Below the pieces are notes generated by a model. It did not search any database. It saw only the letters and a list, made by a program, of their open reading frames with translations, and was not told the DNA's origin. The position numbers and the translations under genes were made by a program. A stretch of 63,691 nt of DNA, counting the filler, from Reclinomonas americana ATCC 50394 (lineage: Eukaryota), in NCBI GenBank assembly GCA_048213135.1. It is 7 parts of 5 records of this genome, joined end to end, with 100 filler letters (N's around TTAATTAATTAA, not from the genome) between each part and the next. Parts side by side here need not be neighbours in the genome. Positions count along the whole stretch, not along the records: positions 58,724 to 63,691 come from PS015536.1; 6 more parts are not named here. One strand, 5' to 3'. Below, one piece after another: positions 9,704 to 63,691 of the stretch. The stretch's first letter is position 1, and each line of letters begins with the position of its first letter.

Positions 9704-9803
9704 NNNNNNNNNNNNNNNNNNNNNNNNNNNNNNNNNNNNNNNNNNNNTTAATTAATTAANNNNNNNNNNNNNNNNNNNNNNNNNNNNNNNNNNNNNNNNN
9801 NNN
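9704..9803. other. Artificial contig-joining linker (N-TTAATTAATTAA-N)
   Basis: Spacer of about 100 nt with stops in all six frames; equivalent linkers at 23023-23122, 33706-33805, 41732-41830, 52008-52107 and 58624-58723. Confidence 0.97.
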
Positions 9804-13280: not shown

Positions 13281-15664
<2,384 letters not shown>

Positions 15665-15701
15665 AAGAAGTCTTGTCCTCCGTCCCAGTTCGCGACTCAA
15701 C

Positions 15702-16920
15702 ATGATTCTCAGAGCACTCGTCAGTCGCGCTCTCTTCAGCAGCAATCACAAGCTGGCGCTCGTCAACAAGTCCTTCCTCGTGCCCACACTACGCATCAGT
15801 TCGCGGGAAGATGGCCTCAGCGCACTCGACAAGGTCTCTCACAAGCTGTCTTCCACACACACACACACACACTGCATGATGCATGCTCATCACTTCTCAC
15901 TCGCACACGCAGATTCGTGCCACTGCTGCCTTCTATCGAGGCTCCCCCGTCGTCCTGTTGCGTGCACACACACACCCTTCTCCCCTGTCCTCTCTCCCTC
16001 TCTGACACACACGCATGTCAACAGCGACTATCGACCACCTGCCACACCACCGAGCGATGCAGATGCCACGACACCGGCCGGCACTGCAGAGATGAGTAGC
16101 AGTAGCGAGGAGGTGGCCGACTTTGTGCGCCACATTGCCGACACACTGCGTGGGGAGTGCGAGATGCTGCCGGTGGGAGTCACGCAGGCATCGCGCTACA
16201 GCAAGGCGATTGCGCAGGCCGCACGGTTGCCACTCGTGCGCGAAAACAGTCAGTCGGTGGTCGTTGTCAGTGGCAGCGACCAGCCAGCTGCAGCGCTGTC
16301 CTCTCAGCCCGCCACGCCTCAGCCTCCGCCTCCACCACCGGCACAGGTGCAAGCTGCACCGTTGGAGGCGCTGGTGTGGTCGCAGCCGGTGCGTGGCGGG
16401 CAGGAGGTGTATGCCAAGGACCGCAGCCTGGTGGTCATTGGCCACGTGCATGCGTACGGCGAAGTGCGGGCCGACGGCGACATTCACGTGTACGGCGTGC
16501 TGGAGGGCCAGGCGCACGCGGGGTACGTCGAATCGCCGCCGTTGCCGCCCCGTGTCAGTTCCCTCATACCTGTGTGTGCGCGCGTGTGTGTGTCATAGTC
16601 TGCGCGGCAATCTGAACTGCCGCATCTACGCGGCTGCCTTCAATCCGGAGCTGGTGAGCATCGCCGGCTACTACACCAGCATTGAACCGGAAAAGACGAC
16701 TGCATCGACAACAACGACAACGACGACGAATAATGCAGAGAATGCAGCTGACAGCGACGCTGCAGCAGTGGAGCACGAGGGAGACGGCACGCAGATCGCC
16801 AACAGCGATCTGGTCATGCTACGCTCGTCGCTGCGCAACCGGCCCGTCATGGTGTCGCTAAAGCCCGGTCCGCAAGAGACCGATCACCAGCTCGTGTTCC
16901 ACAGAATGGGCGCTCGGTGA
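15702..16920 (+). CDS. minC: Septum site-determining protein MinC, nucleus-encoded, putatively mitochondrial
   Basis: Exons 15702-15833, 15913-15956, 16025-16522, 16599-16920 (331 aa). N-domain AFYRGSPVVLD...MLPVGV; C-domain QPVRGGQEVYAKDRSLVVIGHV..GEVRADGDIHVYGVLEGQAHAG...IYAAAFNPELVSIAGYY; Arg/Ser-rich acid-free N-terminus. Confidence 0.92.
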
Positions 16921-23022: not shown

Positions 23023-23122
23023 NNNNNNNNNNNNNNNNNNNNNNNNNNNNNNNNNNNNNNNNNNNNTTAATTAATTAANNNNNNNNNNNNNNNNNNNNNN
23101 NNNNNNNNNNNNNNNNNNNNNN

Positions 23123-32393: not shown

Positions 32394-35300
32394 TCACAAG
32401 CTTCGACGTGCGTCTGCGTGCGATATCAATCGGTGTCGGAGCGATCGCTGTTCTTCTTTGGCGCCAGAGACGGCAGCTGGTCCAGTGGTACGCACCTGCA
32501 TACGTGCCATGTACACAAAATTAAGCATCGGTGAGCTGCATGCACGCCTGCTGGAGAACGCAACTGCACTTTCATGTCAGACACGGACTCCAGCAACTCG
32601 GCCGAGTTGGAGCCCTTGCGCGTGATCGAGAAGCGACTGCCGGCAAGTATCGCGTGTGGTCAGCACTCATCGCTGTGCTGTTGTGTGAACTTGCAGAGCA
32701 CATATGTACGCACCGTACGCGTTTAGGCGTGGCATCTCCACCGACACCCGTGACTCCTTCTGTGTGCCCAAGCGCCAGCATTGCATATGACGACTGGATG
32801 CGCTCGAGGATGGAGTCCTGTGCAGAGGCACTCGACAGCGTGGGATCGACCTCCAGTCGAGCTCGTTCGCGCGTCACGTATTTCTCGTATTCTCTTCCGT
32901 ACGACTGCACATGCACGCACGCACAAGTGAATCAAACGACGACAGTCCGCCGGTTCAAAAGACACCAGCAGCACTCACCTCGAGAATGAAGGCAATCAGC
33001 ACACTGGAGGGCGCACAGAAGAGTTGAGTGACAATGACGACAGGAATGTGAACGCAGGCGGGAGACGCAACTTGATGAACACCACCACCATGATGAGCCA
33101 CCAGATGATAAAGTAGATTCGTGCAGCGCGGTTCGTCACGGCCACATAGCCGGCCACGATGACCTGCCAGTTGTTGACCTATATATACGCGGATGGATGT
33201 GAGCGACGTCACTACGCTGGCAAGTCTTCCTCACGACGCGTAAACGCACGACTTGGAGCTCGAAGAGAACAACTAATAGCACAAACAAATCAGTGAGTGC
33301 GCAAAAAATAGGAAGAGCAAACGCAGCGGCAAGACGCCTGACGCACCAAGAGCAGACGGCAAGTCATTCATGTTGTTCGAGAAGTATTTGGCTTGCACGA
33401 ATGGGTTGTCGGGCGTCAGGGCCGGATTGCCCTGCGATCACTATCGGTGAGACGGTGCAAGCGAGACGACGGTGGCTGTGGCGACACACTTCGTAAATCA
33501 GTCCACCAAAGACTGCAGAAAAGAAGAGCGTGTTAACTAACAAGCCAGCAGACGAGAAACATGGAGAACGATGTGAGCGTAACTGCCAATGCCGATAATG
33601 GCGTAGGCATAGTATACACCCTGCAGCAACAAATGAGGGCGCGAAACCACCATTTCCACATGCGGAGCGAGGCGACGCAACAAACACGACGGCGCCATAC
33701 GGCCCNNNNNNNNNNNNNNNNNNNNNNNNNNNNNNNNNNNNNNNNNNNNTTAATTAATTAANNNNNNNNNNNNNNNNNNNNNNNNNNNNNNNNNNNNNNN
33801 NNNNNCGGAGAACGCGCAGCATAGATGACGCGAGACACACCGAGAATGTTTTGTAGTACAATGGCCTCCGGCTCCTTGGTGGTGACACCACACTGATAGT
33901 CCAGGTTGGATGTGGCGTAGTGAGCACTGACCATCAGATTGATGGTGTAGGCCACCAGGAACACGTCGACAATGGCGTCGAACCACCTGTGGGAAGCTGG
34001 TTGAACACCACCTGCTTATTCGACCAGCGCTCAACTTGACCGTATGCACGCAACTGCGACTTGATGAAGCGAATGAATGCCTGATTTCCCTTGGTGTGGT
34101 AGATGCATCGGAAGAGCCACTCGAAGAACGTCTGGCTCTCCCACGCCGACTTGACCTTGTAGCTCAACACCTCCAGGAACTCGGCAAACTCCTCGCGAGG
34201 TACACACGACCATCACGTTAAGGAGCCAACAAGTCACGAATGTACGCACACACTGCCTCGCACTGACGTGCACTGCGCACAAAGGATATTCAAAAAGCCA
34301 TTGCCGCTGCGGTTGAGCGCGCTGAATGTGATGTCGATCTTCTCCAGCGGGTAGTGCGAGCGGACAACAATCATCGCGTTACGGAAGGTAACATAGTCGA
34401 TGACCTCCACCGGCGCCACGGACTGTGCGTCTTCCAGGTCGCCGGCCGAGGCAGCACTCTGTGGTGACATGAGTCCCGAACCCGACGCGCCCGTGCCAGC
34501 TCCAACTAGCGCAGCCGCACTGCTACCGGCAGCCGGTGTCATTTCCGGCGATGTGGTGTCATTCTCGGTGCCTGTGCAACGACGACACACGAGATGAGTG
34601 CATGGTACGCGCGTCATCAATCAGAGGCACATACCATCTTGTTGACCCTGTTGATCGTGTTGCCGGGCGCTTGCGCTATTTGCCGGCGACGTGACGGGCA
34701 TTGTGCGAACCGTGCACAGCAGATCAAAGGCCATGGACAGCGCAGCAGTCTTCCAGTAAATGATGCGGGATCCGGCACGTCCAGCATGCTCACGGTAGCG
34801 CGAGTAGACAGACGCAAGCACTGCCAAGGAAGCACACTGTTTTAGGGACAGATCATCAGGAGCGTGACAGTTTGCGGCGGAGGCGTCGCGTACCGAGGGC
34901 CATCAGCATGTACAAGCAGATGATAAGGAAGGCGATAAAGATCAAGACATTCCATCGGCTGCGGGAACAACAAACTGTCGGTACAGAGCGAGTAGATTGC
35001 ACATAGACACATACAACAGCGACGCACTTGTCATCGTATGCTGGCATCATGATAGTACACAGCGCGGCGAGGCGTCAGTCAAGGAAACCACAGCAGAGGA
35101 TATCAACAACAACAACAACAATGGTGACAGCAAGGATATTCTGGAAAATTCGCTGTGGTGAGGGTCACCAGCATGTTGAACCAGGAGTCCCAGAAGCCGG
35201 CAAACATCAGACATCCTTGATTGCTAATCGTGCAAGAATACAGTGATCAGCCGACTGCAAACTCAGACGATGGGAGTTGAGAGCTCACCTGGCCTCGAAG

Positions 35301-41731: not shown

Positions 41732-41830
41732 NNNNNNNNNNNNNNNNNNNNNNNNNNNNNNNNNNNNNNNNNNNNTTAATTAATTAANNNNNNNNNNNNN
41801 NNNNNNNNNNNNNNNNNNNNNNNNNNNNNN

Positions 41831-43700
41831 NAACTCATCAGCGTGGATGTCCACCTTTTGACCGTCGAGTGTCACAGTGACTGCGCGTGCATCGCGCGCG
41901 GACGAGGAGGCTAATGAAGAGGAGGCAGCAGCCGCAGCAGTGGAGGAGGAGGAAGAGGAAGACAAGGAGGAGGTGCCGATGCGAGAGCCCGAGGAGTGCC
42001 GCATGCTCGAGGCCGACCCCAGGCGATCATAGGAGAAGAGGTCGGCGTCCACCTCCATCTCGAAAATCTCAATACGATTGACTTCACGTGACAACGACGG
42101 AAGACAACTCGTCGCTGGGGAACTTCACACTGTGCTTGTGTGCAGCACTGCATATGTTCATAATACAATCTCAATCGTGCGATTGGTGAAGAGGACGGCG
42201 CTAAAGATCTTCTTGGCGGCTGGTCCGATCGCGGGGTTGCCTGCAAGTGCGCGCGAAGGTAGGTGGAAGGAAGAGATGGCTTGCTTGCGTGCTACGTGCG
42301 CCGTGTACGAACCACTGATGTCGAGGTGGCGCAGTGAATCGGTAGCTTGCATGAGGAAGCTGGCGCAGCCAAGGGCGCCGGGTCGGCCAATCCCGTTGGC
42401 TGTGTGGCGATCGGGTGAGCTTTTCTCTCTCGCGGTGTCTAGATCTTCGAGAACACACGCCCTGCTTACCTGCGACACTGAGAGAGCGCAAGCCGCATGC
42501 TGGCGACGCGGCCACCTCGACCATCGACTGCACACCATCGTCGCCAATGGCGTTGTGACTGAGATTGAGTCGGTGGAGAGTGGAGTTGTGGGCCAGCGCG
42601 TGGGAGAGCGTGACGGCCGATCTGGTGGACATGCGAGTTACTGTGGACAGCAGGGGAGTGAGGGAACGGAGTCGGCGAGGAACAGCACGAGGCAAACAAA
42701 AGTACATGTCAAATCGAGCGTCTCGAGCGTGCGGTTGTGGCGCAGCGCTTCTGCCAGCAGCGTGACGCCGTCGTCGGCGAGTGGATTTCGACCACAGTCG
42801 AGGTAGCGCAGCGGTGTCGACGCGAGAAGCACGGTGGACAGCGCCCGTGCACCCGTGCTGGTAATGGAGTTGACTGGCGGGGGGTGGCGGAGGAGTGAGC
42901 GATCACATCACAATCAGAGAGACGCGGCAGAGGGTACAGCCACACACACGAAACAATTGAGGCTGAGCGACGTGAGCGTGCTGTTCACCGACAGCGCCGC
43001 GCCCAACACCTCCATGCCCGCGTCGGCGATCTCATTGCCGGCCAAACTCAGCATGCGAATGCCACCGCCACCGTCACCTCCAACAACATCGTCACTCATC
43101 ATCTCCACATCCTCCTGTTCACGCACCAACCACAGCGCCACGATCGCCGAGCCACCGTCTCCCAGTCCATTCTGACTGAGATTGAGGGACTCGAGCGAGC
43201 GACTGGCCCGCACTCCCTCCAGCAGCAACGTGTTCAAGTGCTCTCCATTCTGCCGCATCAGCGCACTCTTGCCAATGTCCAACGAGCGCAGTCGACAGTT
43301 CCCATCGCGCAGCGCATCCCCCAACAATCGCGACGTGTCGCGCGGTGGCACCCCCGCACCCGCCATACTCAGCCCGCGCACTGCACTCTTGCCCGACCGC
43401 ACCGCTGCCGCCAAGAAACGCAGTCCATCCGCACCCATGGCATTGCGCGACACGTCGACACTGGTCACCTCCGACAGCTCCGCCTTCAACGCCGTGGCCA
43501 GCCGGTGCACGCCAGTGGCAGTGAGCGCATTGTCGGCGAGATTCAGTGTACGCAGAGCACACGGCATCTGCATCAGTGTCGCCAGCTCGGCATCACAGAG
43601 TCGCGACGAGTGCGCGTCGACACGTCGCACTCCTGGAAAGAGCTGACACAGACGGCCCAACTCGCCACGATGTCGCGCTGTGCTCACCTGTACATTGCTC
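41831..43700 (-). CDS. Ribonuclease-inhibitor-like LRR protein (NLRC3/CARMIL-type repeats)
   Basis: 28-aa repeats such as LESLNLSQNGLGDGG, LSLAGNEIADAG, LAEALRHNRTLETLDL, LHRLNLSHNAIGDDG; ends uncertain. Confidence 0.8.
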
Positions 43701-52007: not shown

Positions 52008-52107
52008 NNNNNNNNNNNNNNNNNNNNNNNNNNNNNNNNNNNNNNNNNNNNTTAATTAATTAANNNNNNNNNNNNNNNNNNNNNNNNNNNNNNNNNNNNN
52101 NNNNNNN

Positions 52108-58623: not shown

Positions 58624-58723
58624 NNNNNNNNNNNNNNNNNNNNNNNNNNNNNNNNNNNNNNNNNNNNTTAATTAATTAANNNNNNNNNNNNNNNNNNNNN
58701 NNNNNNNNNNNNNNNNNNNNNNN

Positions 58724-60619
58724 TTTCCACCCACATCGTTCCGCATCAGCGACGAGGTGCGTGAGTCTCTCTCTCTCTCTCTTTCCTCTGGTTGCACGAC
58801 GAACTCACTTGCTGACCGGCAGGCCGCCGACTTCCTGCGCACGCTGCTGCAAGTGGATTCGGTATGCCGCCCAACGGCGGCCGAGGCCCTGGAGCATCCG
58901 TGGATGCGTCGCCCGAATTTGCTCATCATGTCCGGCTACTTTCGTGCCAAGGTGCGAACCGCAGGCTCTGGCTTTACCTGTTCCACTCGTCCTCATTGAT
59001 CTCATATGCCAGGAGGAGGAGGAGGACTCGATGGTTGTCGATCCGCTGCACTGGGAGGGCTCGGCATCGATGAGCGCGTCGATGATGAGCAGCTACTCGA
59101 TGACCGTTTCACGGACGCGCGTGAATTCTGCCGACCTGCCGCCTCTGGTGCGAGAGGGAGACGACGAGGAGGCGCAGCCGTTCTTTGACGACGAAGAGCC
59201 AATGAGACCAGCCGAGGTGCGCGCACATTGTCATTCAGTTGGCCTTGTTTAACCACTCAATAATCTGGATTGTGGTGTGCGCAGGAGGCAGAGAGATCGC
59301 TGTTGGTGTCGGTTCGTACGCATTTGCTCACATCATGCAGCGTCTTCTGGTGACGCTAACTCACTGCGATGGCGTGTTTGCAGATCGCGGCCGTGGATGA
59401 CGATGCGTGCTTCTATTCTGCGTCGGTTGCAGATCTGCCACTGGTTTCGCTTGCCAAGGTCTGTGTGTTTGTGCGTGTCTTTCTTGTTCTCCTTGTTTCC
59501 CTTCCCCCTGACGCGCTTCACGTTGCAGCCACCTGCGATGCGATCACCAGCAGCCGCACAACCTGTGCCCGTGGGAGGAGGGGCTTCCCGACCCATTCTG
59601 TCACCCACTCTCTCGGACGAAGAGGAGGTGGAGGAAAGAACAGACAGAGTATCGCAACAACAGCAGGCGGCAGCGCCGACCGCCACAGCCATCGCAGTTC
59701 CAGTGCCCGCCGCCACAGGCGCCGCTCACTCGGCCACCGACGACCGCGCTCTCACCACCACCGAGTCCTTCTTTGTGTACGACCCGACCATGATGCAGGT
59801 TCCGCTGGTGCAACTAGGAGGTGCTGCTGGCGCCGGCGAGGACAGTGGTGTCGATCTGTCGTCGACAACATCACTCGTGGATGTGCCGCCGCCGCGGACG
59901 CCAAGCAAGGTGCGTGCGGTGTTGTCCGAGACAACTTGTGCCTGAAGTTGTCGTCTGAAACGGCGGAACGCGTGTTTTCTCTGATTCATCCTCGCAGGCG
60001 GGCACTGGTGGAGCGCTGAAAATGGCCTTTGTGGACGAAGATGAGTGCGACATGTCGGTGATGTCGGGCTCCCTGCAGGAGCTGTCGATGTTTGCGGCCG
60101 AGCCGGTGCCGGCCTTTTTCCCCCGCCCACCTCCGCCGCCAAGCGACAGCGAGCACGTCGTCAGCGGATCCTCTGCGGCGGCTGTCGCAGTCCCCGACGC
60201 TCCGCGGGTGGGCATCGTGTACGCTGCGCCCTCTCCAGTCGTTGCGCGCCTCGCTGTGCTCAGACACGACGATCTCCGCCCCCCTCACTCTTGTTTCGTG
60301 TGTGTGTGTACAGGCGAGCTCCGCCAAGTTGATCAATCTGACAGGAGACTCGAAGAAGTCACGGCGCGCGCTGGATCTGGTGGAAGACGAGCACATGGCA
60401 CTGTCCATGTCGCCCGACCGACGTGCGATGTTCGCGGACGACAGCGTCGAGGACGGCGCTTTCGCGCGCTGCAATCTCGGCTCCAGCCCACCGACCGACG
60501 CTCGCGATCTGGGACTGGAGCCAGACGATGCATTCGTGTTCGAGTCGGTGCTGTCGAGGAGGCAGTTGCAGCAAGACGCAACAGCCGTCGCAGCGACCGC
60601 GGTGTCCTCGGCACAATGA
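58724..60619 (+). CDS. Ser/Thr protein kinase, end of catalytic domain plus low-complexity tail (5' partial)
   Basis: ISDEAADFLRTLLQVDSVCRPTAAEALEHPWM is kinase subdomain XI (CAMK-like); acidic/Pro-rich downstream exons to the stop at 60617-60619. Confidence 0.75.
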
Positions 60620-60658
60620 AAACAACGAAAAAAGAGTGTTCGATCGTGTGGGAGCGTA

Positions 60659-61345
60659 ATGCTCATCCACGCCCTCCGACGCGCTCTCCCCACACTGTGC
60701 ACCGCCGTTCGACGCCGATCAGCGGCCGTCCTGTCATCATCGTCATCCGATCCGACAATGAACAGCGCCGCTCACCTCGACCTCCTCTCACGCGCCCAGT
60801 GGCGCACCTGGCTGCAGGCCAACCACTCCACCTCCACCGGCATCTGGGCGATCTTCCCCAAGAAAACCTGCGTCCGACCCGGCGAGATCACCTACGACGA
60901 TCTCATCGAGGAGGCACTGTGCTTTGGGTGGATCGACAGTCGCCCCGGCAAGGTCGACGATCGCCGCACAAAGCTGTACCTGTGCCCACGCAAGAGCAAC
61001 GGACGGAGCGGATGGGCGGCGACCAACAAGGCCCGCGTGGAGCGACTTCGCGCCGAGGGTCTCATGACGGATGCCGGTGAGCGTGTCATACAGCGGGCGA
61101 TCGCCGATGGATCGTGGGCGCTGCTGGACAGCAGTGAAGCGGCGCAGGAGCCCGACGATCTGCGACACGCGTTGAGCGTGGAGTACCCGGGCGCGTTGCA
61201 GCACTGGGAGGCCTTCCCGCGCGGAGTCCGCAAAGCAATTCTGCAGTGGATTGCGTTGGCGGTGAAGGCGGAGACGAGGAGAGCGCGCGTGCAACAGACG
61301 GCGCAACTGGCGCAGCAGAACATCCGCGCCAATCAGTACCAGAAG
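60659..61345 (+). CDS. Exon 1: presequence plus YdeI/OmpD-associated (OmdA) family domain
   Basis: RAQWRTWLQANH...YDDLIEEALCFGWIDS...PRK...GWAATNKARVERLRAEGLMTDAG...PDDLRHAL...RKAILQWIALAVKAETRRARV are hallmark bacterial YdeI motifs; intronless; second ATG at 60758. Confidence 0.88.
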
Positions 61346-61421
61346 GTGGGCGGGGGGAGTCGACATCGTCGAGTCGATATCGACCTCATTTCGTTTTTGT
61401 GTGTGTTTTGAGTGAGCGCAG

Positions 61422-63691
61422 GCAAGCATGGACGTGGACGAGGTGAGCAACAGTGTGTGAGCGAGTCAGAGAGCACTGTTCTCACTCTTGTGTGCAGACA
61501 AAGAAGAAGACTGGGCGCAAGCGTGTGGCCGAGCAAGACGAAGAAGAAGAGGAGGATTCTCCTCAACAGAAGCGCCCTCGTGCTGCGGTCAGTGTGTGTG
61601 TATGTGTATGCATAGTGTGCGTAACATGCATCTCAACGTCTCTCCTTGTGCAGAAGCGAGGCAAGAAGGTTGCGGAGTGAAGGAGTGAGAGAGATGCTTT
61701 TCAAGTGACTCTCATTGTGCTGTGTGTGTGTGTGTGCGCGCACGCAGGCTGCTGCAGCGGCAGAGTCGGAGGACGACGAGGAAGAGGAGGAGGAGGAGGC
61801 AGTGAAGAAGCCCAAGGTGTTGTTGATGCGTTTCGTGTGTTGTCTCTTGTCGGAAAAATGTGACACTCTCTGCAGGCCGGCAAGCGAGCTGCAAAGCAGG
61901 GCAAGCGCGCCAAGGTGTGTGATGTGCGTTTTGTAGTGCTGCTCTTGTGCTTCGCTGAGCGATTGTGTCGCAGGCGGCTGCCTCCTCGGACGATGACGAC
62001 GATGATGAGGACTATGCAGAGAAGGGCAAGCGAGGCAAGCGTGGTGCCAAGGTACTCGTGTACGCGCACGCACTCTTCTTGCCGGCGTGACTGACAAACA
62101 TGCAGGCCGACGGTGACGAGGTGATGGCCAAACCGGTGGGGAAGCGAGGCAAGCGTGGAGCGGCCAAAAAGAAGCAAGAGGAGGAGGAGGATGAGAGTGG
62201 CGGTGACGACGACGACGACGACGCGGGACCCAGTTCCGGTCGTGCGGTCAGCTCGTCGTGCAAGGCGGATCTGCAGTGGAAGGAGGTGACCGACATTCCT
62301 AGCAAGTGGGAGGATCTCATCCGCGCTCCGCTGTCGCCCAAGCAGATGAAGAAACTGCGGCCGACTGTGCGTTGGCGTGCCAGCTCGTCTCCGCGTTTGT
62401 TGTTGACGGCTGATTGTGTCTCCTGTCGGCAGATCTACACGCGACCCGCCCGCGATTTCATGCTTCCAGTGCCTTCGTTTGACAAGTTGCGTGCGTGCTG
62501 CTGGTTGTGGTGCGTATGTTTCACTGAAAGTGGAGTGCATGCGTGTGTGTGCAGGGACTCGGAACTGAAGAGTTTCGGCTCTCTGTTGCTCCCCGTGCTG
62601 CTGCATGTGCCACTCACTCACCCCCTCCTGTCACCAACAGTTATCACCTACAATGTCAACTCGTTGCGCGGCATGATGGTGTGTGCCTCGCGGTCTCCTG
62701 TGTGTGTTTCGAGTCACTCACCTGCACCCGCAGACCAAGCGAAAGGCCGAGTTCCTGGAGCTGGTGGCGGAGGAGGATCCAGGTTGGGTGGTGGTGTGGT
62801 TGCTCGCCGCAAGTGTATGCGCGGTCGTTGTTCTCATGGTTGCTGCCACCGCAGACATTTTGTGCCTGCAAGAGACCAAGTTGAAAACTGGCGATGTCAC
62901 CCAAGAATTGCGCAACCTGCTCCCCGGTTACACGTCGTTGCGTGCTGCGCCTGCCATCTTCAAACCACACGTGATTGCGGGTCTGATCGTCTTACAGGTA
63001 CTGGAGCTGCAGCACGACGACGCTCGGTTACGCGGGCACAGCGTTGCGTCTCGCACTGTCCGTGTGTTGCCTCCCGTGCTATCGACTCATCGCCGTGCTG
63101 CCAGTGTGTTCACCCGCATCAATCCGCAGCACGTTTCGTACTCGTTCAAGTCTAAGCACGACGGGGAAGGGCGTTTCATTCACCTCGAATTCGGCGGCTT
63201 CCATCTCATGTTGCGTCTTGTTTCTGAGCGTGACCACACGTCCCATCCGTCTTTCACTGCGTCTGCATTCTCCGACAGCAACACCTACGGTGCGGCGCAC
63301 AGCTCCACCGCCCTCTGTTGTCTCACCACGCACTCATGTTCCCTCTCCTCCGATTGCAGTGCCGAACGCGGGTCAGGGCCTCAAACGCCTCAGCTACCGC
63401 GTCAATTCGTGGGACCCAGACTTGTTTGACTTTATGAAGGAGCTCGACAAGACCAAGCCCGTCGTGTGGACCGGTGATCTCAACGTTTCGTAGTTTCTCT
63501 TCCTCAGTCTTCTCCTTCTCCTTCTTTCTCTCCTCCTTGAGAACTGTGGGGGCGCTGTAGATGTGTGGCTTCGGTCTTCCTCACAACGTGTGGTTTGACG
63601 ACGCTGCAGGTGGCTCACACGGAGATTGACATTTTCTCGCCAGAGACCAACGTTTCGTGCTGCTTCTCTTTGTCAACAATGTTATGCGTTG
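61422..63691 (+). CDS. APEX1: AP endonuclease (APE1/ExoIII family) with K/D/E-rich N-terminal linker (3' partial); probably the same gene as the YdeI exon
   Basis: Spliced [66 protein letters not shown]; 17 short exons including 11-, 15-, 17- and 21-nt ones. Confidence 0.92.

Follow-up and report, generated by a model that had tools for sequence, protein, structure and literature searches.

Layout of the locus

The window analysed here is a stretch of 63,691 nt from Reclinomonas americana ATCC 50394, and the locus occupies its final part, derived from record PS015536.1 (positions 58,724-63,691; 4968 nt, with no Ns within). The end of one gene, an open reading frame of the YdeI type and a series of exons resembling those of an APE1/ExoIII nuclease follow each other on the same strand. 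All coordinates given for the locus in a first-pass annotation of this DNA were reproduced on re-checking, and the features are as follows.

60,314-60,619, plus strand: last coding exon of the upstream gene, in a coding-like frame (GC3 0.76), ending with TGA at 60,617-60,619
60,659-61,411, plus strand: YdeI open reading frame, 250 aa, ending with TGA at 61,409-61,411
60,659-60,757, plus strand: presequence-like extension of 33 codons, Arg-rich, missing from bacterial homologues
60,758-61,345, plus strand: YdeI core, 196 aa, with an N-terminal alpha/beta domain (putatively of the DUF8412 type) and a C-terminal helical OmdA domain, intronless
61,346-61,421, plus strand: candidate intron 1, 76 nt, GTGGGC...GCGCAG, phase 0
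61,422-61,442, plus strand: exon 2, 21 nt, holding ATG 61,428, from which a stand-alone APE1 could start instead
61,498-61,587, 61,654-61,668, 61,748-61,816, 61,876-61,914, 61,974-62,051 and 62,106-62,366, plus strand: linker exons, all introns in phase 0
62,433-62,485, 62,555-62,571, 62,641-62,678, 62,734-62,782 and 62,855-62,933, plus strand: first five APE1/ExoIII exons (coordinate model)
62,998-63,042, 63,105-63,209, 63,279-63,289, 63,360-63,484 and 63,610-63,651, plus strand: last five APE1/ExoIII exons (coordinate model)

The upstream exons are probably the C-terminal end of a gene resembling protein kinases, since the exon at 58,823-58,951 matches the end of the Pkinase profile (positions 237-263 of 263), with an E-value of 0.0029 that falls under the cut-off. 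The TGA of this gene lies 39 nt ahead of ATG 60,659 and shares its frame with the YdeI ORF; a read-through from kinase to YdeI over this single stop codon was considered and dropped, given that no in-phase intron was seen by eye and that the Trp codons of YdeI are all standard. Rfam gave no matches on the window.

The complete gene model comprises 18 exons and 17 complete introns, with an 18th cut at the window end, and encodes 608 aa in a single frame. It agrees with the first-pass annotation that the exons chain without a stop and that the first seven introns are all in phase 0. The linker exons encode acidic runs alternating with basic motifs, and the linker as a whole (61,422-62,571) amounts to 213 aa with 48 Lys or Arg, 55 Asp or Glu and four basic clusters, being of low complexity and without homology support. 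By sequence match, the exons that follow are those of an APE1/ExoIII nuclease: for one exon of 41 aa the E-values are 3.2e-12 against Arabidopsis ARP (8ka3), about 3e-5 against human APE1 chains and 1e-5 to 4e-5 against APE1/ExoIII chains, two further exons match as well, and another stretch matches ARP 8ka3 at 8.2e-6. Pfam Exo_endo_phos (PF03372), applied to unspliced fragments only, gave E-values of 0.007-0.012, under the cut-off. Both contig and window end at 63,691 inside the nuclease domain, so that the C-terminal catalytic Asp/His would lie beyond the stretch.

APE1-type enzymes occur with various N-terminal additions. Among solved structures, the nuclease exons match best that of Arabidopsis ARP, named in its entry as chloroplastic DNA-(apurinic or apyrimidinic site) endonuclease. 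To judge by this name it is an organelle-directed enzyme of the APE1 type; it too carries an N-terminal addition, which is a SAP-type domain rather than YdeI, and it has no intronless bacterial-type exon. Human APE1 (APEX1) belongs to the same nuclease family and has a short, disordered, charged tail that carries localisation signals, but no folded accessory domain, whereas the gene modelled here would place a folded bacterial module of 196 aa and then the charged linker ahead of the nuclease.

The YdeI exon and its bacterial relatives

The OmdA domain is readily recognized in the YdeI ORF (Pfam PF13376, E-value 4.6e-13, scoring 49.3 bits where the gathering cut-off is 25.6), as well as in the core alone (2.9e-13). 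For the N-terminal domain, the DUF8412 type is assigned indirectly, through the annotation of homologues: DUF8412 (PF28474) gave no match to the core in the copy of Pfam used, while precomputed PF28474 assignments are present on every homologue listed and in 100% of the members of the three Atlas clusters shown. DUF1801 (PF08818) gave no signal in this domain even at an E-value of 10, and an NCBIfam search returned no matches.

The search for similar sequences returned 2496 matches with E-values of 1e-3 or less, reaching 4.5e-67 for the best one, and among the matches listed all relatives are bacterial or metagenomic proteins of about 197 aa. The best bacterial matches share 57-61% identity over 76-97% of the query, 61% being the closest identity in the collections searched; metagenome loci reach 57% and nothing closer. 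The 30 Atlas matches are without exception clusters that carry the same pair of families, and Bacteria make up 100% of each of the three displayed. The alignment runs from end to end, with M34 corresponding to the bacterial start and K229 to the bacterial end, which bears out the earlier placement of the domain end (...ANQYQK) at 61,345, directly before a GT. In a quick tree, YdeI is nested inside a clade of 33 rows (SH-aLRT 99) on a terminal branch of 0.51, compared with a median of 0.27, and no row was flagged as long. A bacterial origin of this exon is thus well supported by sequence comparison, and lateral acquisition, as the first-pass annotation had proposed, appears to be the best reading, because a whole, conserved gene of bacterial type is embedded between intron-bearing eukaryotic genes.

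The core resembles the stand-alone bacterial YdeI/OmpD-associated proteins (DUF8412 and OmdA) along its full length, being collinear with them and sharing both their start and their end, but these have no presequence, no nearby introns and no nuclease attached or adjacent. As had been noted earlier, the exon also spans 687 nt without an intron, whereas exons in the remainder of the gene, with its 17 complete introns and the truncated 18th, average 67 nt. Several observations favour a live gene over debris, namely the conserved columns (37 of the 39 conserved at >=80% are intact, exceeding the bacterial median), the confidence of the AlphaFold2 model of the core (pLDDT 96.2), a host-like GC3 (0.82 in YdeI; 0.71-0.77 in host exons) and the absence of Ns.

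The structural comparisons turned up no solved structure for the YdeI family. A profile search found no relatives in the PDB, and with Foldseek neither the whole core nor its C-terminal half had a match at E<=0.001. VIA-align likened the N-terminal domain to alpha/beta sandwiches of the IF3-C, Alba, TusA and Smr kind, at Z-scores of 5-7.7, a range the tool calls common, and gave a best Z of 4.5 for the C-terminal half; no function was drawn from these likenesses.

The 33-residue extension ahead of the core was described previously as Arg-rich and free of acidic residues. The first part of this description stands (five Lys or Arg, pI 11.8), but the extension does contain one acidic residue, at position 31. 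By its Arg-rich, acid-poor composition alone, it would qualify as an organellar (mitochondrial or plastid) presequence.

A combination of YdeI with a nuclease is not a common architecture, and it turned up in no protein search made. A word-based search for longer proteins containing YdeI found two, neither with Exo_endo_phos, and nothing scored in the corresponding search with the unspliced APE1 ORF. HMMER over 1.84 billion representatives gave 5542 at E<=1e-3; among the best 150 of these 5542, 17 proteins are clearly longer than YdeI, and a Pfam scan of the 17 detected no nuclease, although fusions may yet occur further down the list. The fusion partners seen for bacterial YdeI are HAD, Cdd1, DUF1801, SLT and metallo-beta-lactamase, with no ExoIII. 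The literature searched yielded no publication on a YdeI/OmdA module joined to APE1, so that such a module as an N-terminal addition to APE1 appears in neither the databases nor the print sources covered.

One gene or two

The relationship between YdeI and the nuclease depends on the spacer at 61,346-61,427. Left unspliced, candidate intron 1 adds 21 codons to YdeI before the TGA at 61,409-61,411. Read as an intron, it has a donor at 61,346 that is the sole in-phase GT among the four GTs in range, and an acceptor at 61,419-61,421 that is the sole CAG between 61,340 and 61,445 and whose frame fits the downstream exons. The donor, GTG preceded by AAG, sits precisely where homology to bacterial YdeI stops, and AAG likewise precedes five of the seven linker-region introns. 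Its composition (T 32%, A 14%) is close to that of the other introns (31% and 13%) and unlike that of exons (15% and 24%), its length fits a model in which 16 of 17 introns measure 54-79 nt, and it carries a branch-like CTCAT 33 nt from its 3' end, an instance of the motif CT[CG]A[CT] that occurs in 12 of the 17 introns, a threefold enrichment relative to exons. The 21 read-through codons have a GC3 of only 0.52 (11/21) against 0.76-0.82 in exons (P 0.015). Taken together, the position of the donor at the homology boundary, the intron-like composition, the branch-like motif, the lower GC3 of the tail and the uniqueness of both donor and acceptor lead us to favour the reading as an intron. On this basis it seems fairly likely that YdeI and APE1 share a fused transcript, whose main mRNA would encode the presequence, YdeI, the charged NLS-like linker of about 213 aa and the APE1 nuclease. 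The parts, their order, the compatibility of their frames, the bacterial ancestry of YdeI and the conservation of its fold can be regarded as established at the level of sequence, and the splicing of the intron is what we infer.

The existence of an in-frame chain should be interpreted with caution. Among 5000 dinucleotide-preserving shuffles of the 82-nt spacer, 1323 (26%) still yielded an in-frame GT...CAG link of 50-130 nt, and in 482 (9.6%) the donor of such a link lay no more than two codons from where the homology ends; at a control locus in the same window (ATG 15,702 to MinC), more than 89 in-frame chains are possible. Such chains are abundant in the stop-poor DNA found here, and an in-frame chain alone is weak evidence for a fusion, because 26% of shuffled spacers give one too. 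Nor does a pyrimidine tract with CAG before an ATG have to mark an internal exon, since the probable start codon of MinC likewise has one in front of it.

A less probable arrangement, though one that has to be taken seriously, is that of two tightly packed genes: a presequence-bearing, stand-alone YdeI whose 250 codons run up to TGA 61,409-61,411, and an APE1 starting from ATG 61,428, with transcripts that overlap or abut, which would seem to be customary in this genome, and with the in-frame GT...CAG being a coincidence, as it would be in 10-26% of cases by chance, or a rarely used site. The usual APE1 layout is a charged N-terminal tail beginning at Met, and ATG 61,428 would give just such an ordinary stand-alone enzyme. 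Bacterial YdeI homologues stand alone with C-terminal tails of 2-25 aa, a range into which the 21-aa read-through tail falls, and no fused relative was found in the searches made. The first-pass annotation had argued against two genes from the 16 nt between the stop at 61,411 and ATG 61,428. This gap is correct, and it is tighter than two other same-strand stop-to-ATG gaps in the window, but the force of the argument is weakened by their lengths of 39 nt (60,619 to 60,659) and 37 nt (15,664 to 15,702, from GH1 to the probable MinC start), on account of which very tight spacing of separate genes looks normal here. Features of the spacer itself also count against two genes: the tail has a non-coding-like GC3 and ends in hydrophobic residues encoded by a T-rich tract, the composition and the branch-like motif are intron-like, and the donor falls where the homology stops.

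It is very unlikely that the YdeI ORF is non-working (having been inserted recently, or lying as an upstream ORF within the leader of APE1) or a bacterial/eukaryotic assembly chimera, for although the contig has just 4968 nt in a fragmentary assembly, the window is joined from seven short contigs and no relative of the organism carrying the gene was found in the collections searched, the bacterial part has exactly the bounds of its ORF, lies without Ns between same-strand, intron-bearing eukaryotic exons on both sides, follows a eukaryote-style presequence in frame, matches host exons in GC3, keeps its conserved columns intact and has a terminal branch that is not unusually long.

For the fused gene, we suggest the following scenario. 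A bacterial ydeI of the DUF8412 and OmdA type would have been transferred to a site with the upstream gene on one side and the 5' end of an APE1-type gene on the other. It would then have adopted the codon composition of the host and acquired its Arg-rich organellar presequence, either by gain or by capture, while the ancestral stop region of ydeI would have become the 76-nt phase-0 intron. Alternative starts at 60,659, 60,758 and possibly 61,428 could then give rise to organellar and nuclear forms, as far as composition alone can indicate targeting. The YdeI module may help the nuclease to locate or retain repair intermediates that are abasic or nicked, for which contact between the two domains would be unnecessary because the linker is long and disordered.

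YdeI proteins and damaged DNA

The idea in the first-pass annotation that YdeI binds damaged DNA gains one independent experimental lead. In a published lesion pull-down, Bacillus subtilis YdeI (P96666) was strongly enriched, with log2 values of 6.58 on an abasic-site bait and 6.31 on an rU bait, alongside Nfo, MutM and ExoA, the last being a homologue of APE1 (PMC10220248). B. subtilis YdeI has the architecture PF08818 plus PF13376, and PF13376 was also detected in the B. subtilis control genome; OmdA is the sole domain it has in common with the YdeI described here, as it is a stand-alone protein with an N-terminal DUF1801, in contrast to the putatively DUF8412-type N-terminal domain of the latter, which gives no PF08818 signal. 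The YdeI family is basic, with a median pI of 9.4 and 41 of 46 members above 8.

Across 162 bacterial ydeI loci (1.12 Mb), tblastn at E<=0.01 with a 166-aa partial APE1 query, which limits sensitivity, detected no ExoIII gene within 5-6 kb of ydeI. Pfam domains of the 148 nearest neighbours at 80 genome loci, for which there was no control set, are heterogeneous and include DnaN (1), GyrB (2), RecA (1), DinB_2 (1), WYL regulators (2), SAP (1) and DUF1761 (7).

Taken as a whole, the locus is an interesting but unproven lead towards an altered APE1 architecture. If YdeI and APE1 are two genes, an ordinary lateral transfer beside APE1 remains. If the join is real, it would be a clear-cut example of lateral acquisition in which a whole gene from bacteria has turned into an exon of a eukaryotic gene central to DNA repair, and it would agree with the sole experimental hint of an OmdA-domain protein on abasic DNA (PMC10220248). 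It would also provide a testable hypothesis for a large family of unknown function, namely that its members bind abasic or nicked DNA and stimulate, or hand over to, an AP endonuclease. The furthest-reaching version, which we put forward as a doubtful proposal, is that bacterial YdeI/OmdA is a binder of abasic sites or base-excision repair intermediates that was captured laterally and welded, via a new intron, to an AP endonuclease directed to organelle and nucleus. Were this true, lesion binder and nuclease would be united in one chain, and the fusion would serve as a ‘Rosetta stone’ for thousands of uncharacterised bacterial proteins.

Layout of the YdeI/APE1 contig and parts of the YdeI reading frame

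Seven short contigs make up the window, each separated from the next by a spacer consisting of 44 N, TTAATTAATTAA and a further 44 N, so that gene adjacency across the spacers carries no meaning; other stretches of N, 20-776 nt long, resemble scaffold gaps. The final contig (58724-63691; 4968 nt, 0 Ns) ends where the window ends, and on its + strand the exons of an upstream gene are followed by one uninterrupted ORF and then a long run of short exons.

Features of the window
9704-9803, 23023-23122, 33706-33805, 41732-41831, 52008-52107, 58624-58723: spacers with stops in all six frames
within 15360-16600, + strand: last exon of a GH1 glycosidase, stop TGA 15662-15664
60617-60619, + strand: TGA stop ending the last coding stretch of the upstream gene
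60659-61411, + strand: YdeI ORF
61346-61421, + strand: candidate intron 1
61422-62571, + strand: charged linker

The YdeI ORF matches Pfam OmdA (PF13376, E 4.6e-13), and a homologue search gave 2496 matches at E<=1e-3 (best 4.5e-67), with identities of 48-62% among those listed. Stand-alone bacterial proteins of ~197 aa align with it collinearly between Met34 (ATG 60758) and Lys229 (61345); their starts line up with ATG 60758 and their C-terminal ends fall 2-25 residues beyond the position of 61345. The first 33 codons, before ATG 60758, are Arg-rich, acid-poor and without bacterial counterpart. Going by Atlas clusters the N-domain is probably of the DUF8412 type, a DUF1801 signal being absent even at E 10. 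The module is basic (pI 9.6) and its fold is predicted with a pLDDT of 96.2 (95 for the helical C-terminal half including OmdA, 61019-61345). Its first 85 residues look like the IF3-C/Alba/TusA/Smr group of small alpha/beta sandwiches, with Z scores of 5-7.7, a range that VIA rates as common; against solved structures the C-terminal half reached a best Z of 4.5 in VIA and gave no Foldseek match at E<=1, and a profile search with YdeI gave no match. The YdeI/OmdA family appears structurally uncharacterised, and the predicted fold of the core is little guide to function.

One exon of the upstream gene matches the extreme end of a protein-kinase domain (E 0.0029, below cut-off). The TGA of that gene and the YdeI ORF share a reading frame, and only 13 sense codons separate the TGA from ATG 60659. 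The shared frame is probably a coincidence (1 in 3), and would be relevant if the stop were read through, or an intron had gone unrecognised, at 60617-60661.

Proposed splicing of YdeI to the APE1 exons

The exon chain proposed in the first-pass annotation translates without a stop, and the extended gene model reads 608 residues in one frame from 18 exons, with 17 complete introns and an eighteenth that runs off the window end. The 3' exons encode a nuclease of ordinary APE1/ARP type: Arabidopsis ARP (8ka3) is matched by an exon of 41 aa at E 3.2e-12, numerous APE1 chains match the same exon at ~3e-5, and two additional exons also give matches. Pfam searches with unspliced nuclease fragments remained below cut-off, and the final portion of the domain lies past the contig end. 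In the linker (~213 residues; 48 K+R, 55 D+E) acidic runs alternate with basic clusters, and since the exons at 61422-62366 repeat a unit of acidic run followed by basic motif, the sequence suggests growth by exon duplication. The introns through 62105 (intron 1 and six in the linker region) are all in phase 0 (7/7), and intron 7 contains an in-frame ATG (62100) in its final 6 nt.

A spliced YdeI-APE1 fusion transcript is plausible, and is the reading we somewhat favour. The donor of candidate intron 1 comes immediately after the final codon with homology, has the AAG|GTG form common to 5/7 linker-region introns, and is the sole in-phase GT (61346) of four in range; 61419-61421 is the sole CAG nearby, and removal of the intron would leave YdeI in one frame with ATG 61428 and all downstream exons. 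Its length of 76 nt is typical (16/17 introns measure 54-79 nt), as is its composition (T 32%, A 14%, against 31%/13% in introns and 15%/24% in exons), and it holds a CT[CG]A[CT] motif seen in 12/17 introns and enriched threefold there relative to exons. The GC3 of the read-through tail is 11/21, versus 0.76 in exons (P 0.015).

That YdeI and APE1 are instead two separate genes is less probable, though several observations speak for it. The 16 nt remaining between the genes had been considered too short, an argument that loses force because separate genes in the window lie 37-39 nt apart: the upstream TGA is 39 nt from ATG 60659, and the GH1 stop 37 nt from ATG 15702. A pyrimidine tract and CAG also stand just before ATG 15702. 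When the 82-nt spacer was dinucleotide-shuffled, an in-frame link was still possible in 1323/5000 cases (26%), and beside the homology end in 482/5000 (9.6%), while the GH1/MinC control locus allowed >89 in-frame exon chains; the in-frame link alone therefore deserves less weight. Finally, the architecture search revealed no protein combining YdeI and Exo_endo_phos among the best 150 of 5542 matches, in collections without a close relative of the host.

The spacing at the control locus is as tight as at the YdeI start. The ORF beginning at ATG 15702, the probable MinC start, is Arg-rich and presequence-like and shares its frame with a MinC_C domain (Pfam E 1.3e-14); the locus probably represents a nuclear-encoded, organelle-targeted MinC.

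Origin of the YdeI gene

The YdeI exon is, as far as sequence can tell, a live and laterally acquired gene, and the case for lateral transfer, as first proposed, is solid. All relatives found are bacterial or metagenomic proteins; 30/30 Atlas matches are clusters carrying this pair of Pfam families, and the three clusters displayed consist 100% of Bacteria. A quick maximum-likelihood tree of 119 rows (window YdeI, proteins P0003-P0040 where 180-240 aa long, and genome loci aligned over 165 columns or more; anything shorter excluded) nested the window sequence within a 33-row clade of metagenome proteins (SH-aLRT 99). The exon runs for 687 nt without intron, the remaining 17 exons averaging 67 nt. 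A dead insert or artefact is very improbable, as YdeI keeps 37/39 (0.95) of the columns conserved in at least 80% of 46 bacterial homologues (bacterial median 0.90), its GC3 of 0.82 resembles neighbouring host exons (0.71-0.77) and its fold is confidently predicted; chimeric assembly is likewise unlikely, because the bacterial part coincides precisely with its ORF, bears an in-frame eukaryote-style presequence and has intron-bearing exons on either side.

Novelty of the proposed fusion and a possible role at DNA lesions

N-terminal additions to APE1/ARP-type enzymes are known. None of YdeI type was found in the databases searched, and if spliced as modelled the YdeI addition would be new for APE1-type enzymes. 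Bacterial YdeI can be fused to HAD hydrolase, Cdd1 (PF11731), DUF1801, metallo-beta-lactamase and SLT domains (proteins P0123, P0154, P0052, P0170, P0001, P0141), and P0171 carries a Lys/Arg-rich C-terminal tail beyond YdeI reminiscent of the window linker. Literature searches found nothing on PF13376 or COG4430, nothing relevant on AP endonuclease HGT or domain fusion (10 of 23 matches listed) or on OmdA and endonuclease (10 of 24 listed), and no YdeI/OmdA link to AP endonucleases beyond one proteomics study by lesion pull-down (PMC10220248).

The initial suggestion that YdeI binds nucleic acid or DNA lesions gains this one independent lead. In that study, B. subtilis ydeI (P96666) was enriched on abasic-site (log2 6.58) and ribonucleotide-in-DNA (log2 6.31) baits, alongside exoA, nfo and mutM, and the supplement assigns it PF08818 (DUF1801) and PF13376 (PMC10220248); the PF13376 profile also matches in our B. 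subtilis control genome. The B. subtilis protein therefore shares OmdA with the window protein but not the N-domain. The functional inference is suggestive. The gene neighbourhoods of bacterial ydeI gave no repair signal. The only recurrent neighbour among 80 bacterial genome loci was a DUF1761 gene, directly upstream on the same strand in 7/80 (6 Bacteroidota, 1 Spirochaetota).

Bacterial genome loci with DUF1761 upstream of ydeI
L100, L110, L121, L129, L135, L147, L160

The fused protein would run from an organellar-type presequence through a folded basic YdeI module and the charged linker to the nuclease. Because of the pull-down lead, with OmdA shared, and a mostly basic family (pI >8 in 41/46 members), it is a reasonable hypothesis that the YdeI module may bind abasic or nicked DNA and feed it to the nuclease.
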